NCBI RefSeq assembly: GCF_035084215.1
Contig: NC_090351.1
Coordinates: 13,640,001 to 13,704,000, forward strand
From: Heptranchias perlo
Taxonomy: Eukaryota
Length of the DNA: 64,000 nucleotides
Reading direction: 5' to 3'
This document shows, piece by piece, positions 1,529 to 62,165 of this stretch (position 1 is the first letter of the stretch; every line of letters starts with the position of its first letter). Below the pieces are notes generated by a model. That model saw nothing but the letters and a program-made list of their open reading frames with translations, was not told the origin of the DNA and made no database searches. Both the position numbers and the translations under genes were made by a program.

Positions 1529-2034
1529 GTAAGTTGAACTGGATGTAATTTAGCTGTGAAATATCATGCATTTGTAATAATCTATTTTTCTAAAGCTATT
1601 GGGATTTTACTGGTATATAAAATATTGAATGTATGAGAGGTACTTGTGTGAACTCTGAGTCTGTGACTTCTGAAAAGGAACACCCTGTATCAACTAAAAT
1701 ATTCCCTTTATTCTACTATTCCTATTAATCAAATATTGTAGAATGTACAGGGATTTTCTGCTGATTCTGTTACCTTTATAATTCATGGCAACTAATTTTC
1801 TCAAAACCTTTCCCCAGCACAAACTTGTACTTGTAGGTTTGCTCTGCAGACAGCATTAGCAATATTTCCTTAACTGCCAGTGTATCAGATTCAAAAAGTC
1901 TGGGACGGAGAGTTGAGTTGGGAGGGTGAGTGCAGGGATGTTGCGCAAGTTAACCTATTTTAGTGATGCAAGGATCAAAAATTACCAGTGCCTGAAAATC
2001 CTTGCAGTGACTGCTTCGAGTACTGTCATTTACA

Positions 2035-2088
2035 TGTTATAAAATTGTTTACAATTGTCAACCCCAGTCCATCACCGGCATCTCCACA
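2035..2088 (+). mobile_element. Short 3'-end stub of the Penelope-like hammerhead family
   Basis: aaaattgtttacaattgtcaaccccagtccatcaccggcatctccacatca is identical to the end of the 61.4-kb copy; flanked by the direct repeat TCATTTACA (2026-2034 and 2089-2097). Confidence 0.85.
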
Positions 2089-2794
2089 TCATTTACAACA
2101 TCCACTGTTTGCTATCGGTGACTGATAGGGTGTGAAATCCCTGTGTTGTGAATGCTGGTCACTGAAGCAATCACTGCTGATTTTAATAGTGACATCTGGA
2201 GTCTTGCACTACTGAGGGATGAATGTTTATGGCTGGAAGTTGTGGGGCTGTGCATTGGGTGGGAAAATTACAAGTGCTGCGATTACACGGTGAGAGGTGC
2301 AGTTAGACAGCTCTCTTTTTAGGCGATAACATAGCACAGCTGTGCTCAAACACATGTACTTCCGCAGGGGTTTTAGCAAAATTAAAATAGGTCATCAATA
2401 ATTGATGTAAGAAATCAATATTTGGAGGTAACTTCACAACAGGCAGAACTCTCTGTGTGGGGCTGAGGGCAATCTGCATGACCAGAAGTGAAAAGATTAA
2501 ATGCAACTGCTAGGATGTTCAGTGACAGTGACATCTCATGCTGGTTTTTGGATGTTGTTATGTAATGATGGGCACCTCTCGACTAACACCGCTGTATTAA
2601 TGAAGTGTTAGTACCTTCATCGTAACCACATAGGAACCCTGTCTAAAGTTTCCCACTTTATAATTGTCACTGCAATTGATTAACTGCCCGTGTTTCTGTT
2701 CATATAAAACTCGACCAGTGGCCTCTCATTTGTTCCTTTCTAAAAGCATATCTGGATAAGTGATTCAAAGGAGAGATTATATTAGAGTAGGTCG

Positions 2795-22278: not shown

Positions 22279-23042
22279 GGCTTAATATACGGTCCACAGG
22301 GTTGGCTTTCACGTGACCGCTTCCATCGAGCGGGAGGCGGATGGAGCGAGTGGAAGCAGTTCGACACCTGAGCCATTTTCATAGTCGGGCCTCATTAGCG
22401 TTCCATCTGTGAGCTGTTTACACTTTAGGGGGAGACGTGAAATCTGGCAGCACACCATGGAACCCAACCAGGCCAGGTAAGTTAAAGGGAGGTGGGTAGA
22501 GAGGCGATCCTGGGGAAGAGTCGGGCATTGGGCGGGGTGGGGGGTTGATTTGAAGCGTTACTCTTGGGTTATAACTGAAGAGTATATTTTCCTCTGCTAA
22601 TATTAGCAAAAAGCACTGCTCCTCTTAGCCCCACAAAAATCATTTAAAAGCCTTTTTCTAAAAAAAAAAATTCAGCGGCCTGCTGTGGCCCCCTTAAGGA
22701 CCGCTGGTTAGGCCATTCCACGTCAAATACCAATGTGAAGAGTGTGCCTGGTGCATGCTTCTACCATTGGTACCTTAATTGCATTAGGGTCCTATTGATG
22801 TCATCGGACCATGTTTCGAATCGGCTAATGAGGCTCCCACCTGTTCCCGACAGGCAGCTGGGCCGCCCATTTCAAGCCCCCCACCAAAATGGCGGCGATC
22901 CAGATCGCCGCCATTTTGGTGGGGGGCTTGAAATGGGCGGCCCAGGAACGGGGGCAGTAAATACTGTGCTGCTATTTTCATCATATTATAGCCCCGTCCC
23001 CGACCAGTGGGGAGCAGGGGAAGGGGGATGAAAATTGGCCCC
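22279..23042. mobile_element. Degenerate GC-rich non-autonomous DNA element (probably Harbinger-derived)
   Basis: Imperfect termini gggttggctttca and tgaaaattggccc; internal motifs shared with 30470-31410 and 42405-43308. Confidence 0.45.
22858..22945. repeat. Perfect 43-bp inverted repeat with a 2-nt loop
   Basis: ctgggccgcccatttcaagccccccaccaaaatggcggcgatc, then CA, then the exact reverse complement. Confidence 0.97.
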
Positions 23043-23203
23043 CATTTCTCTCTGGAGATGATCCACTTTTGGGGGAGATGGCTTGCCTCTTGTTTGGTTC
23101 CTTTGCTCACATTCTGCCTGAGATTAGGAACTCATTATATGGTGAATCATGGGCTGAAATCAATCGGCAATGAAATCCCTTGCCACAAGAACAGTATGAA
23201 GGA

Positions 23204-23388
23204 AAATCAAAATACTGCGGATGCTGGAAACCTGAAATAAAAACAGAAAATGCTGGAAATACTCAACACATCAGGCAACATCTGTGGAGAGAGAAATTAT
23301 TCTGACAAAGGGTCATCGACCTGAAACGTTAACTCTGTTTCTTTCTCCACAGATGCTGCCTGACTTGCTGAGTATTTTCTGTTTTTAT
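23204..23388. mobile_element. Older fold-back Penelope-like element remnant with a degenerate hammerhead core; related fragment at 55234-55317
   Basis: Arms tcaggcaacatctgtggaga and tctccacagatgctgcctga; core CTGACAA-AG-GGTC atc GACC-T-GAAA-CG-TT; degenerate flanking direct repeat. Confidence 0.65.
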
Positions 23389-24116
23389 AACAGGATGGAG
23401 GAGGCTGACTACCATTCAATCTGTGCCATTTAATTTATATTCTGAAGAACCAAAATCATCCTAACTTGACAAATAAATCACCTTCCATGTCTAGTACAAA
23501 ATCTGATAATGGAAAGTTTGTTTTGTGTTATCTGACCAACTGGCAGTCAAACATGTGGGGCCCACCTCTCCAATCTGATAGTGACCTGTGGTCCTAATCA
23601 CATCCACATTGTGAATACAGAGTCTTAGGAATAAGTAAGTACAACAAACTTTATTTTGTTATGTCTCAGGAGTATTAAGCAAAATTGGAGGCTGACATTT
23701 CCCAGCTTCAGGTTGTTTTCAGAAGTACTTTAGAATTGATGAAAATTATGGGATGATGGAGCTTTAAAAAGACTTTAAATTAACTTGGCATCATCCCTTT
23801 TGCGATGTTTTCTTTGGAATTTTGCCACCGACCAGCTGTCTGAAACAACCTTTTCAGCCCCATATCATATCCATATTCCTAACTGTATTGAAATTCATAA
23901 ATTAAAGGACAGTTTCTCTATTTATTTTTTGACCTGTTACGAATTGACTAGTCTTTTTACTATCGTGGTAATCCATTCACTAGGAGGTTGATTGTAAAGG
24001 CATTAACCTGAACTCAATTGGTAACTAAATGATTGCAAAGTATAAACTGCAACGTTCTTTCACTTATCATTTCAGACCGAAAGCTGTTTAAAAAGATTGA
24101 AACTACTGGATTCCAA

Positions 24117-52820: not shown

Positions 52821-53929
52821 TTGTTGACCATTTTACTGTGTATCCTGGCTGAGGGATAAAAATTAAATACATAGGTAAAGGAACACATAATAATAATGAA
52901 GGCCATTCATTTGCTATTTGCACAGAAAAATAAACAGTTGTGAAATGCGATCCCCAAAAACAGTAAAAATCTCAGAATACCATTTAATAAAAATGGAATT
53001 TAACTTATTCGGGCACTGTAACTCAGTGGGCCCGAGAAGATATGTGGGTCACATGGCAAAACACCCTTAATGTTGTATTAGAATATTCTGGAACTCATCA
53101 TAAGCATTGCTATGTCACTGGCAAGGCCAGCATTTATTGCCCATCCCTAATTGCCCTTGAAAATTTCTTGCAGCTGAATGCCTCAAATTTTCTTATTCAT
53201 CCAAAAGCTTCAAATCCGACCTAAAGAGATAGGAAATACAGCCTTCAAAAGGTGAGGAAAATTGCTATTTTTTGAAAATCCTTTTGGCTGTAATTTTGGT
53301 TTCTTCAAGCTGAAGACACTGCCAATAATAAGATTTGTAACATACGAAGAACATAAAATACAACAACCTTCATTCATATAGCACCTTTAATTCAGAAAAC
53401 TGTCACAAAATCTACAAGGTAAATGGTTAAACACAGCTTTGGAATCACATCAGCCATTTTAAAATGCTTCCAAAGACATTTTCCATCAGAGGACTGTGGT
53501 TTCTGAGAACCCTGAAGCTTACGTTTATGGGATACATCACTCTGTCAGCTCAAAAATAACCCCAAGATAACAGACTACAACTCCCAGTATTCCAGGTACA
53601 TGTGAAACACACAAATATTAAGTTCAGATCACAAAGGTGTCTATTATTGTTACACCCCAGGTTAGAAAAGCATAAAAGACTTGCATTTATGTTGCACCTT
53701 TCATGACTTCAGGCCATCCCAAAGCACTTTACAGCCAATGAAGTACTTTTTTTTTGAAGTGTAGTCACTGTTGTGTTGTAGGAAACATGGCAGCCAATTT
53801 ACACACAGCAAGGTCCCACAAACAGCAATGTGATAATGACCAGATAATCTATTTTAGTGATGGTGGTTGAGGGATAAATATTGGCCAGGACAGTGGGGAA
53901 AACTCATCTGCTCTTCTTCAACATAGTAC

Positions 53930-54234
53930 TGATGTGGAGATGCCGGTGATGGACTGGGGTTGACAATTGTAAACAATTTTACAACACCAAGTTATAGTCC
54001 AGCAATTTTATTTTAAATTCACAAGCTTTCGGAGGCTTCCTCCTTCCTCAGGTAAATGTTCAGGAGCTCCTTGAAGCCTACGCATTTATACATATACGTT
54101 CTATATGTATAAATGCGTAGGCTTCAAGGAGCTCCTGAACATTTACCTGAGGAAGGAGGAAGCCTCCGAAAGCTTGTGAATTTAAAATAAAATTGCTGGA
54201 CTATAACTTGGTGTTGTAAAATTGTTTACAATTG
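53930..54234 (-). mobile_element. Non-autonomous Penelope-like fold-back element (138-bp perfect inverted repeat, 12-bp TSD)
   Basis: Arms 53959-54096 and 54102-54239, loop CGTTC; TSD TCAACATAGTAC (53918-53929 and 54235-54246). Confidence 0.88.
54141..54181 (+). ncRNA. Minimal type I hammerhead ribozyme motif (mirror copy on - at 54017-54057)
   Basis: AUUUAC [CUGAGGA] A GGAGG-aag-CCUCC [GAAA] GC [UU] GUGAAU: stem I, conserved core, stem II, palindromic AGCU stem III. Confidence 0.75.
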
Positions 54235-57193
54235 TCAACATAGTACCACTGATTTTTTACGTCCACCTGAGAGGTTTAACGTCTCATCCAAAAGACAGCA
54301 CCTCTGATAGTGCAGCACTCCCTCAGTGCTGCACTGAGTGTCAGCCTGGATTTTGTGCTCAGCTCTATGGAGTGGGACTTGAACCCACAAACTTTCTGAC
54401 ACTATCATATAGTTACAAATTGGGGAGTATGGGCACACCTCAGAAGGAAGACACTCAGACCACTTACGAGAGTGACCAGCAACAAGACTATCAAAGCCAA
54501 AGCGCAAATTCATATTGGGGAGCAAGACTTGGAGTAAAACTGGTGGGCAAATAGCCCATTATCACTTTCTACTGGTATTTACTCATGTCCATTTGAGTGT
54601 AAAATTATTCCACCGAAAAAGTTAATTCATATTTAAATTAATTTTGAATTTATGAAACAGTTATTGGTAAAACTTACGTGAAATGAGAGGTGCCAAATGG
54701 TTTGAACTTTGTTGATGGGTTACATACTTTGAGGGGCAGGTTGTGCCTCTGACAATGTTGCCTTCCTCAAGATGGGATGCCCCAGTACTGCAAAGCATCC
54801 CAATTTTAGCCGAGCAGGACCAGTGAAACACACCCACTGCAATCAGCCAAGATTGAACATCAGAACTGCCAAACCAATTCTCAATATATAAAGTCACAAA
54901 TCTCAAAGGGACCACTTTCTAAGTGCTTCTAATTTGTGTTGAGATTTTAATTAATTACAAAAATCTGGAATCATTAGTAGCAATAAGAGATTTGGAGGGC
55001 CTCAGCACTTAGGGTAATGATTGGCAAATGGTGTTTAATGCAGATGAATGCAAAGTAACGGGTGTAGATGTGAAAGACATTAACTGTGATTACAGGATTA
55101 ATGATTTTACTTTGATGAAGTTACTGCAGCAGCAGATTGCCAGAGTGGGTTTAAAAATATAGTGGTATTCCAGTGTGTAAGTGCATCACCCAGTGTGGTA
55201 GCGAGCTGTACAGAGCAAGATGATATTTCATTCAAAAGCAAAATATTGCAGATGCTGGAGATCTGAAAGAAAATGCTGGAAAAAGCTCAGCAAGTGAGGC
55301 AGCATCTGTGGAGAAAAATATTCGATTCATCCTCCAGTCTGTCTGAGTTAACTGATCGCAGCCATGATAGCAATGGGGCTGTCAACTGGCCTCAGTGTGG
55401 GATCAGACAATGTTCCCAGAGACCCCTGCTAGAAAGTACATATGTGGATGGACAGGACCGGGCATAGCTGTGACTCTCCTCCCCCCCCCTCCTCTCCGAA
55501 TAGCTTGTGATACTGTTAGGTTCACACACGTTGAGTGGCCACTTTGGTAAAGTACCTGAGGATTACCAGAATCCATGGAACAATATTAATGAGTCAGCAT
55601 TCCCAGGGGAGAACCAGAATAAAAAAACAAACTTCAGTTAGAGTAAATGTTATGAAGTAACTGAATTCTCTATTTATTATTAAAAGGGCCGTATTTGTAA
55701 TATTGTAGTGAGTCTGTAATACTGCCATGATGTTGTGTGGTGACACTGAGCAAACAGATAGATGGAAAATATTTCAACCCATTTTTCTTTCTGTTAATCC
55801 CCCAGCCCAGGTATTTTACCCACTCTGCCCAGCTCTGCTCACTTCCAGGCCAGTGCTAAGTGATCCTGCTTTGCACCACTTCACACCCAGGCCCAGGTTA
55901 AGTGCTTCAATTCTGCACTACTCGCTCCCTCCCTACCGGGCACAACCTCAATGATCCTGCACTGTTTCTGCTTCCCCCTTCATCGAAAGCCTGCTCCCTG
56001 TGCTACAGCTCCGACCTCCCCCCTCCCCCCGGCAAACATTTTAGGAGTAGTCTTACTCCCTGCTGTACGTCATCACTTTGTTCCTGCCATTCTCTCTGGC
56101 TCCCGTCCAGCCCCACTCTTCACTGCCCAGGTCAGAGACAGAGCAGAGCTTTGCTGCAGACAGGATGCATGAGTTCTAAGAGGACAGACAGACTCTGTCA
56201 ACTTTAAGACCAGCAGATCAGCTGCACTGCTGAAGGCTGCTCCTGAACTTTGAATAGGATCAGTCGTCAGGAGATCGGCCAGTCCCAACACAGACTGAGC
56301 CTGTGCACTCTCTTAATACTTGTACTACCAGTTTATAGCAGGACGCTGCTCTGCCCCTAACTCAAATGCCCAAAACACTACCCTAGCCTCCAAATGTAAG
56401 ATGGTCGGCATCACAAAAGTTCTGTCTAGCCCTCCTCTCACCCTGTCTCACTCCTGCCTTTGGCGCTCAGGCCCTGATCTTCCCCTCCCCATTCCAGCTT
56501 CAGGCCCTGAGCCCCATCCTCCTCCCTTCTGCTCCAGCTTCAAGCCGCTTTGTGGATCTTTCCTGACCCACATTCAGGCCTTCGCAGTTCAGACCCTGGC
56601 ATCCACTTTCCCCAGGTCCACACTCCCGCTTTCTCTCACCCACGAGTGTTGTGGCAATTCCTAGACACATCAGTGTGGGGTCACAAATCTGGATCTATTG
56701 TGACATCAAGACCACCCAGCCTGGAGAGCAAGACCGCTGTTCCAGATTCACCATTCCCTCCCAGGCCAGAGCTGGCATATCCTGCTTCTTCTTAGCCCAG
56801 GCCCCCAGCCTGAAGTTTCTCTGATGTGCGCACCGCCCCTAATGGATGCCTCTCTCTCCAGCTGGCCCAGATCCCCAACCTCGACTAGGTACACTTTTGC
56901 TTTCGCCTTCCTGTGTGTCTCACTATTTATTAAAAAAGTACCAAAATAACAGTGATGCATAAGGACTTCTTCCATATCTAACCACTGTCATTTCACTGTG
57001 CTCAATGCAATACTCCTGCAGTATAGATAGCAGTATTACCTTGGAAACCAGCCAACACCTTTTTCCCTTTGCAGTGACAGGTGATGATTAATAAGACAAA
57101 CTGACAATTAGGCCGCATTTACAAGAAGAGATTCTAAGTCATTGTACTAAATCTCACAAAATCTGTGTAAAACATCATTGAGGTGACACTTGA

Positions 57194-60441: not shown

Positions 60442-60777
60442 TGGTGTCTGTGGAGCAATATCCAGTGATGAGTCAATATCTTCAGTAGAGGAGGGAAGAA
60501 AACTGGAGGGTGAGAGGAAGAACAAAACTGGAGGGGGAGTGGGGGAGAAAACTGGAAGGAATTGAAAGAAAGTGCTCTCCTTTAGAAGAATTAAAGTAAC
60601 TTGTGAAATATGGCTCTGGAGTTCACTACACTGTCCTGCAATTCACAGAAGGTGGTAATACAGAAATTGCAGTTACAAAGCAAAATTGCAGTGTTTTTAG
60701 ATCATAGTTTAGATTAGAATGTGAGCACAGCTCAAAATGCTTTGTTTTTCTCTTACAGCCTATTTATCGTTGAAGAT

Positions 60778-61482
60778 TGTAAACAATTTTACAACACCAA
60801 GTTATAGTCCAGCAATTTTATTTTAAATTCACAAGCTTTCGGAGGCTTCCTCCTTCCTCAGGTGAACGTTGTTGGAAATGAAATCCTCGAAATGAAATCG
60901 CATTTATAATTCACAGAACAATGCTTGGTGATTACAGACAGTTTTTTCAACTGCCCGTTGCCAAGGCAATCAGTGTGCAGACAGACAGGTGTTACCTGCA
61001 AGGTCTCCGAATATACAAATCACCAAAAAAAACCAAAAAAACAAAAAAAAAACAGAGATAGAGAGGTAGAAACATAGAAAAGACAGCAACTGACCACCAG
61101 CGAACAAATGTTATCTGTTTTTAATATAACGGGTCAGTTGCTGTCTTTTCTATGTTTCTACCTCTCTATCTGTTTTTTTTTGTTTTTTTTGTTTTTTTTG
61201 GTGATTTGTATATTCGGAGACCTTGCAGGTAACACCTGTCTGTCTGCACACTGATTGCCTTGGCAACGGGCAGTTGAAAAACTGTCTGTAATCACCAAGC
61301 ATTGTTCTGTGAATTATAAATGCGATTTCATTTCGAGGATTTCATTTCCAACAACGTTCACCTGAGGAAGGAGGAAGCCTCCGAAAGCTTGTGAATTTAA
61401 AATAAAATTGCTGGACTATAACTTGGTGTTGTAAAATTGTTTACAATTGTCAACCCCAGTCCATCACCGGCATCTCCACATC
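60778..61482 (+). mobile_element. Non-autonomous Penelope-like fold-back element (inverted repeat of about 320 bp, 12-bp TSD)
   Basis: Arms 60776-61095 and 61132-61447, 36-nt loop, unpaired 3' tail; TSD ATCGTTGAAGAT (60766-60777 and 61483-61494). Confidence 0.9.
61356..61396 (+). ncRNA. Minimal type I hammerhead ribozyme motif (mirror copy on - at 60827-60867)
   Basis: GUUCAC [CUGAGGA] A GGAGG-aag-CCUCC [GAAA] GC [UU] GUGAAU. Confidence 0.78.
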
Positions 61483-62165
61483 ATCGTTGAAGATGGCAGG
61501 GCAGATTGAGAAAGCGGTTAAAAAAGTATATGGGATTTTGGGCTTTATAAATAGAAGCATAGAGTACAAAAGTATGGAAGTCATGATGAACCTTTATAAA
61601 ACACTTGTTCGGCCACAACTGGAGTATTGTATCTATTTCTGGGCACCGCAGTTTAGGAAAGATGTGAAGGCCTTAGAGGGGGTGCAGAAGAGATTTACTA
61701 GAATGATTCCAGGGATGAGGAAGTTACTTGGATAGACTGGAGAAGTTGGGGTTGTTCTCCTTGGAACAGAGACGGTTGCGAGGAGATTTGATGGAGGTAT
61801 TCAAAATTATGAAAGGTCTAGACAGAGTAGACAGAGAGAAACTGTTCCCATTGGTGGAAGGGTCAAGAACCAGAGGACATAGATTTAAAGTAATTGGCAA
61901 AAGAACCAAAGGTGAAATGAGGAAAAACTTTTTTACACAGCGAGTGGTTAGGATCTGGAATGCACTGCCCGAGGGGGTGGTGGAGGCAGATTCAATCATG
62001 GCCTTCAAAAGGGAACTGGATAAGTACTTGAAAGGAAAACATTTGCAGGGCTACAGGGATAGGGCGGGGAGTGGGACTAGCCGGATTGCTCTTGCATAGA
62101 GCCGGCGCAGACTCGATGGGCCGAATGGCCTCCTTCCGTGCTGTAACCTTTCTAGGATTCTATAG
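61483..62165 (+). mobile_element. 5'-truncated CR1 3' fragment
   Basis: LYKTLVRPQLEYC, LEQRRLRGDL, FFTQRVVRIWN; tail gtaacctttctaggattcta. Confidence 0.9.

Follow-up and report, generated by a model that had tools for sequence, protein, structure and literature searches.

The window, which means the whole stretch of 64,000 nt that was analysed, contains near 60 kb an insertion built as a large palindrome, and a LINE fragment begins at its right end. The unit consists of a tail-less inverted arm, a loop, a sense arm with a tail, and one hammerhead motif in each arm, and it is bordered by a target site duplication (TSD) (Table 1). The 12-mer ATCGTTGAAGAT was found at just two sites in the window, 60766 and 61483, and these are the two TSDs of the unit. 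The preliminary description had reported here a larger fold-back copy with arms of about 320 bp, a ribozyme, a 12-bp TSD and a 36-nt loop, and all of these parts were recovered. It had also placed the terminal tail on one arm only, which is matched with the 37 nt at 61446-61482 on the sense arm; the tail reaches 61483-61484 and overlaps the TSD by up to 2 nt. Differences between the arms had been described as lying mainly in A/T runs. We found all of them within simple-sequence runs, namely T6/T5, a C/A difference together with a 1-nt indel in A-runs, and a single AG unit.

TATA-like motifs face outward in both arms. On the strand of the inverted arm there is an X-box-like motif, a candidate by its sequence, to which presumably the label RFX belongs. 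Tail-less ends fall on the 3' side of the apical hairpin of the predicted 3' stem-loop. Immediately left of the TSD, at 60740-60760, a pyrimidine tract is followed by CAG, which is similar to a splice acceptor.

Table 1. Coordinates of the palindromic insertion, its motifs, its target and related copies in the window
Feature	Position	Strand	Basis or remark
Left TSD, 12 bp, 60-kb copy	60766..60777	+	
Tail-less inverted arm, 318 bp	60778..61095	-	Arm comparison
Minimal type I hammerhead motif, inverted arm	60827..60867	-	Descriptor
Centre-junction microhomology, 2 nt, common to the inverted arm and the continuous sense sequence of the family	61094..61095	+	Contig loose ends
Loop, 36 nt, ordinary family sense sequence	61096..61131	+	Arm comparison, contigs
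Sense arm, 314 bp, interpreted as 3' UTR / pseudo-LTR	61132..61445	+	Contig record 25 colinear over 61094-61396
X-box-like motif (candidate)	61255..61267	-	
TATA-like motif, 41 nt upstream of the hammerhead; also in both 54-kb arms	61315..61321	+	
Minimal type I hammerhead motif, sense arm	61356..61396	+	Fold and descriptor
Predicted 3' stem-loop	61409..61472	+	z -2.6; 3/200 shuffles equally stable
One-sided tail, 37 nt (up to 39 with TSD overlap)	61446..61484	+	
Right TSD, also the first bases of the CR1-type fragment	61483..61494	+	
5'-truncated CR1-type LINE fragment, insertion target	61483..62164	+	Similarity to window copies with Pfam RVT_1
Sister (54-kb) copy: 12-bp TSD, 138-bp identical arms, 5-nt loop, one-sided tail	53918..54246	-	
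Third copy: last 58 nt of the family (2035-2092), tailed, no long inverted arm; 9-bp TSD overlapping the tail by 4 nt	2026..2097	+	
Copy of an older, unrelated minimal-hammerhead family, same build	23190..23402	+	TSD 12/14

Target site and other copies in the window

LINE fragments are plentiful in the window: of the 15 ORFs scanned, 5 matched RVT_1 (36 ORFs of at least 120 aa were listed). The target of the 60-kb insertion is one of these fragments, which we take to be CR1. In comparisons with 3 of 5 window copies, similarity to CR1 starts at the TSD start, or at most 1 nt from it, and none is present in the left flank; this agrees with the insertion into the first bases of a 5'-truncated CR1 that had been proposed. 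Landing on the first bases of an older CR1 fragment is unlikely by chance. A transduction driven by CR1 was considered as the reason why the CR1 start coincides with the TSD, and was rejected, as it does not account for the left TSD. The targets 60766-60777 and 53913-53922 before insertion contain the same 8-mer GTTGAAGA, which has 7 occurrences across both strands of the window and resembles the arm/tail boundary of the element.

The sister copy near 54 kb lies on the other strand and is identical to the 60-kb copy from 61360 to the tail end, as had been noted for the 3' end. The sequence upstream of the hammerhead differs between the two. The TSD of the 54-kb copy overlaps its tail-less end by 5 nt, and its tail has about 29-34 nt. 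In the third copy (2026-2097) the target equals the antisense of the first 9 inserted positions. This copy is possibly a degenerate form of an inverted one, with an arm of 6 bp lying within the TSD. A match of 9 was reached by 5 of 3000 random 30-mers, and 10 further, longer matches were taken as elements themselves. The three family copies thus have TSDs of 12, 12 and 9 bp and sense parts of 387, 172 and 58 nt, showing variable 5' truncation. The family sequence that continues upstream of 61094 in contigs (see below) has no copy in the window.

The copy near 23 kb belongs to an older family. The antisense arm carries its tail (about 33 nt), and the loop holds a decayed hammerhead oriented with the tail-less arm. 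Its TSD is a degenerate 14-bp repeat, and a match of 12/14 was reached by 1 of 300 random draws. Positions 55234-55323 hold a simple 5'-truncated tailed fragment of the same older family; it was considered as another self-inverted copy and rejected, since it is not palindromic. An inverted adjacent 5'-truncated copy is therefore present in 2 of 3 members of the 60-kb family and in 1 of 2 members of the older family in the window.

Two other repeats were observed. A GC-rich near-perfect palindrome of 88 bp (97.7%) at 22858-22945 is unrelated to the hammerhead families and has no other clear copy in the window. A long tandem array of 31-bp units (about 90) lies between LINE fragments from 11039 to about 14100.

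Family in public contigs

Public contigs from 4 of 24 runs were aligned to 61040-61620; two of the four (X1 and X4) are one sample, from organism A, from which the window may itself derive. The numbers of aligned contigs, 45,712 and 26,286, include the CR1 part, and depth yields no copy number; they indicate that the family is abundant. Past the tail, 127 and 117 records enter unrelated flanks (agreement 0.36). In two runs this loose-end consensus starts with G, which would complete an ATG at 61483-61485; with an agreement of just 0.36 it is a weak hint of a start codon. In two runs, 91 and 54 records extend upstream of 61483 with sequence unlike the flank in the window.

Upstream of 61094 the records (85, 33, 4 and 2) go on with one consensus (agreement 0.83-0.98), so the loop of the 60-kb copy is plain family sequence. 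One frame of the 30-nt upstream consensus, read by eye, ends LGFMSRYT-stop just before 61094, and the loop starts about 4 nt past this stop codon. This reading suggests that loop, arm and tail together form a single uninterrupted segment, probably corresponding to the complete 3' UTR of a coding element. The peptide presumably resembles the C-termini of Penelope-like elements (PLEs); none of five short peptide strings sought in one supplement file was found there. In X5 and X6 the loose ends that lie before 61360-61361 are similar to the 54-kb copy in its upstream part, which means that there are at least two upstream variants with a common 3' module.

Runs X5 and X6 are from organisms B and C and also contain family sequence, with 104 nt identical at 61379-61482 in X6. 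We did not take these matches as evidence of spread between species: the shares are small (0.18 and 0.12), the element/CR1 depth ratio of X6 is like that of organism A, and trace DNA is possible.

Nine of the 15 contig joints listed (of 39) link the element to CR1. Four of them exit at the tail end (61483-84) and five exit earlier, at 61424, 61434, 61446, 61446 and 61448; these five may represent either arms of inverted pairs or plain insertions that lack a tail. Six of the nine enter CR1 at the AT-rich stretch 61541-61550 with different element ends, a possible insertion hot spot. By analogy, this entry point hints at a target preference like that of PAc (Poseidon of Anolis carolinensis). The 15 of 39 joints listed included no strand-change joint from another copy.

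Hammerhead motif

The motif has a 6-bp stem I, the core CUGAGGA, one extra A, a 5-bp stem II, GAAA, and a palindromic GC remnant of stem III without loop 3, and the cut is predicted between 61390 and 61391. A minimal-hammerhead descriptor, composed after the motif had been seen, gave four matches in the window, which are the four arms, and none in 30 shuffles. With Rfam, no hammerhead was obtained at gathering score or among the 25 matches at E up to 10, all of which were sub-threshold hits to generic hairpin models. Hammerhead and tail patterns gave 0 loci in viral contigs, metagenome contigs and prokaryote genomes.

Stem I had been said to differ between the copies (GUUCAC and AUUUAC) and still to pair in both. 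The pairing stands, as stem I folds in the 60-kb and 54-kb copies, but the changes are not compensatory: they are wobble changes, G.U to A-U and C-G to U.G, on one side only, and there is no covariation between the two copies. Among 40 of the 51 contig variant rows listed, the sole variant in the core, stem II or GAAA-GCUU is at the free position N7 (61366). The change 61356 G>A preserves stem I. The change 61395 A>T, which makes up about 29% of the summed depth in X4, would remove the fifth stem I pair unless 61357 also changes, and no compensating change at 61357 was among the same 40 of 51 rows.

Both long copies span the intact hammerhead cut site, so the template RNA was probably uncleaved; copying of PAc also uses uncleaved RNA (PMC11167929). 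Minimal PLE hammerheads with the same features are expected to act as dimers and to cleave weakly, and pairs of the motif in metazoan PLEs occur 100-700 bp apart on opposite strands (PMC4209133). In Schistosoma PLE hammerheads stem I has 4-5 bp and stem II 7-8 bp, compared with 6 and 5 bp in the motif recognised here from sequence (PMC4209133).

Identity of the insertion

We place the unit among the PLEs by its combination of hammerhead, tail, inversion and TSD. The 60-kb unit is very probably a young, protein-less insertion of the 3' end (pseudo-LTR, pLTR) of an abundant PLE family, in the known form of an inverted copy plus tail. The parent of an endonuclease-positive PLE is expected to encode a telomerase-like RT and a GIY-YIG endonuclease in its ORF, and such elements also occur as partial tandem copies (pLTR-ORF-pLTR). 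No GIY-YIG domain was found among the 15 of 36 window ORFs (at least 120 aa) that were scanned, five of which gave RVT_1, and no PLE ORF was seen.

It means that the insertion is not a new type of element, and both its architecture and an idea of the fold-back type are already published. In canonical PLEs too, the 5' end may carry an inverted copy that is itself 5'-truncated, and a tail of 30-40 bp is often confined to one end, according to passages of Craig et al. 2021 (PMC8557442). For rotifer PLEs, inverted pLTRs, TSDs of 8-10 bp, an optional 31-bp tail and a TATA box are described, and self-priming was inferred from palindromic junctions, in the part of Arkhipova et al. 2013 that deals with them (PMC3846280).

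Formation of the palindrome

The hairpin had been attributed to fold-back or template-switch priming during integration. The data support formation at integration: the TSDs enclose the whole unit, the loop is family sequence, and no substitutions lie outside simple runs. Of the two routes, a template switch fits better than a spontaneous fold-back. The centre junction has 2 nt of microhomology and a forced DNA hairpin there costs +3.3 kcal/mol, so a jump held by the enzyme is needed in any model; in the 23-kb copy, moreover, the loop belongs to the tail-less arm.

We consider it an even chance that the 60-kb palindrome was made by priming of both target strands on RNA followed by a template jump, where we infer which enzyme acted, in what order the steps occurred and how many RNAs took part. 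The GIY-YIG endonuclease of a PLE would cut both target strands 12 bp apart. One strand would prime reverse transcription at a distal start site of the RNA and give the tailed arm, and the other would prime about 30-37 nt further in, aided by imperfect pairing with the RNA, and give the tail-less arm. Both strands would copy the same uncleaved RNA, or RNAs from one source. One cDNA end would then jump onto the 3' end of the other with 2 nt of pairing, and second-strand synthesis would close the head-to-head palindrome.

Several features were counted in support of two-strand priming: the published PLE pattern, the clustered tail-less ends, the in-register matches, the 2-nt centre and the 23-kb loop on the tail-less arm. 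Tail-less ends cluster at element positions 61445-47 and 61449-54 in the window, and 3 of the 5 tail-less contig joints, among 15 of 39 joints listed, are at 61446, 61446 and 61448. The tail of PAc is bounded by two reverse transcription start sites, and purified PLE protein cuts both strands and extends them from these sites on uncleaved RNA (PMC11167929). At the tail-less end of the 60-kb copy, the last 9 nt of the left TSD, read in register with the arm, match the element antisense at 7 of 9 positions (0.0016 of 127,983 window positions). At that of the 54-kb copy the target matches the element at an exact 5 nt in the same register (0.0009 of 127,983 window positions); the statistic was picked per copy post hoc, and swapped statistics give 0.05 and 0.07.

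The first rival is a fold-back in cis, which we hold to be rather unlikely, clearly below two-strand priming. Here the tail-primed cDNA would snap back, or be gripped again by the reverse transcriptase, and copy itself, and the second target strand would anneal near the tail boundary. Relative to the arms the loops are short (5/143 and 36/350), with a probability of about 0.004 for independent truncations, and are thus coupled to arm length; fold-back explains this for free, and it was counted against two-strand priming. The arms of the 60-kb copy agree at all 21 listed family-variable places within the arm, as self-copying would give; with the short loops, this indicates that the two arms derive from a single RNA or a single source. 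In the 60-kb copy the loop extends the sequence of the tailed arm, and in the 54-kb copy it is unassignable, which again is what fold-back predicts and was counted against two-strand priming. In-register target matches fit annealing to DNA too, and initiation in the PAc study at a site not homologous to the cut DNA was also counted against two-strand priming (PMC11167929).

However, the 2 bp at the fold are unstable alone, and fold-back leaves unexplained both the clustering of tail-less ends and, in PAc, their coincidence with an RNA start site (PMC11167929). Nor can plain fold-back yield the 23-kb copy, since a folding cDNA copies only what it already holds, while two priming events can give it. 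That copy is single and old, and its loop could have flipped later. The A5/A6 difference between the arms, counted against fold-back, equals a family-wide indel found in 40 X4 contigs, though slippage would account for it as well.

In the rotifer proposal, self-priming occurs on an antisense transcript before integration, and the hairpin intermediate is then inserted by the endonuclease. It was inferred from palindromes at inverted junctions (PMC3846280), and the outward-facing TATA-like motifs in both arms would suit it; the centre junction here has no natural palindrome longer than 2 nt, and we regard this route as improbable for the present copies. Still less credible is a palindromic element of the MITE or retrozyme type that would propagate itself by being copied whole. 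The two long copies are palindromes that encode no protein and have TSDs, the family is abundant and at least two upstream variants sit on one 3' module, as such an element would allow. Against it, the two copies differ in centre and arm length, their ends are asymmetric and tandem units are absent, and the family sequence continues upstream of the loop with no turning back (85 and 33 records). An assembly or library artefact in the form of a fold-back chimera is hardly believable: no contig across the centre junction of the 60-kb copy was among those listed, but TSDs on both sides, the one-sided tail and three such units from two families in the window speak against it.

Our preference for two-strand priming, at even chances against the clearly smaller ones of fold-back, is a lead and not a result, since it depends on two young inverted copies and one old one. 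Extended to inverted-plus-tail insertions of PLEs in general, the same route (distal and internal, pairing-guided priming of both strands on RNA, then an end-to-end template jump) is a tentative suggestion, with somewhat less than an even chance. No statement of paired two-strand priming for such insertions was found in the literature searched, which covered few subscription journals.

The 60-kb copy itself is a dead-end copy of a known class of retroelement, and its value lies in its data. The origin of the inverted repeats and the one-sided tail of PLEs is called unresolved in passages of two papers (PMC8557442, PMC11167929). A young and abundant family offers many junctions to separate fold-back from two-strand priming. 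If paired priming is true, junction statistics such as loop orientation, end positions, in-register pairing and allele sharing between arms would reveal a step of PLE transposition. Numerous near-perfect palindromes with outward TATA-like motifs might, in addition, give rise to double-stranded RNA and make the DNA locally unstable.

Comparison with known elements

In mammalian L1, twin priming uses both target strands as primers on the RNA, and the second primer shows microhomology. The segment inverted in L1 is another part of the RNA, whereas here the same part was copied twice.

The copies do not fit transposons of the MITE or foldback type, in which the terminal inverted repeats are symmetric and the internal structure is constant: their ends are asymmetric (one-sided tail), and centres and lengths differ between copies. 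Animal non-LTR retrozymes are similar in being protein-less, 300-400 nt long, related to PLEs and equipped with a type I hammerhead, but they form head-to-tail tandem repeats in the descriptions consulted (PMC7229834; bioRxiv 10.64898/2026.07.22.740005), and the copies here are single and head-to-head. Head-to-tail tandem units with hammerheads were found at none of the three window copies.

PAc shares with the present family a tail bounded by two ends near a stem-loop, and copies that span the intact hammerhead cut site (Frangieh et al. 2024, PMC11167929). AT-rich targets are found both for PAc (PMC11167929) and in the element-CR1 joints listed here. The ORF of PAc starts inside the hammerhead, while no start codon overlaps the hammerhead here, and priming of PAc needed no homology, while target-element matches were seen here (PMC11167929). 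Inverted insertions are not treated in the passages of that paper that bear on inversion (PMC11167929).

The closest likeness is with endonuclease-positive PLEs, as described in parts of two papers (PMC3846280, PMC8557442): an inverted pLTR with a tail at one end, TSDs around the whole unit, a TATA-like motif, a hammerhead in the pLTR and head-to-head arrangement are all shared. In contrast to the inverted insertions given there, the present copies have no ORF, no second direct pLTR and no long natural palindrome at the junction, and the TSD is 12 bp compared with 8-10 bp in the rotifer cases (PMC3846280).
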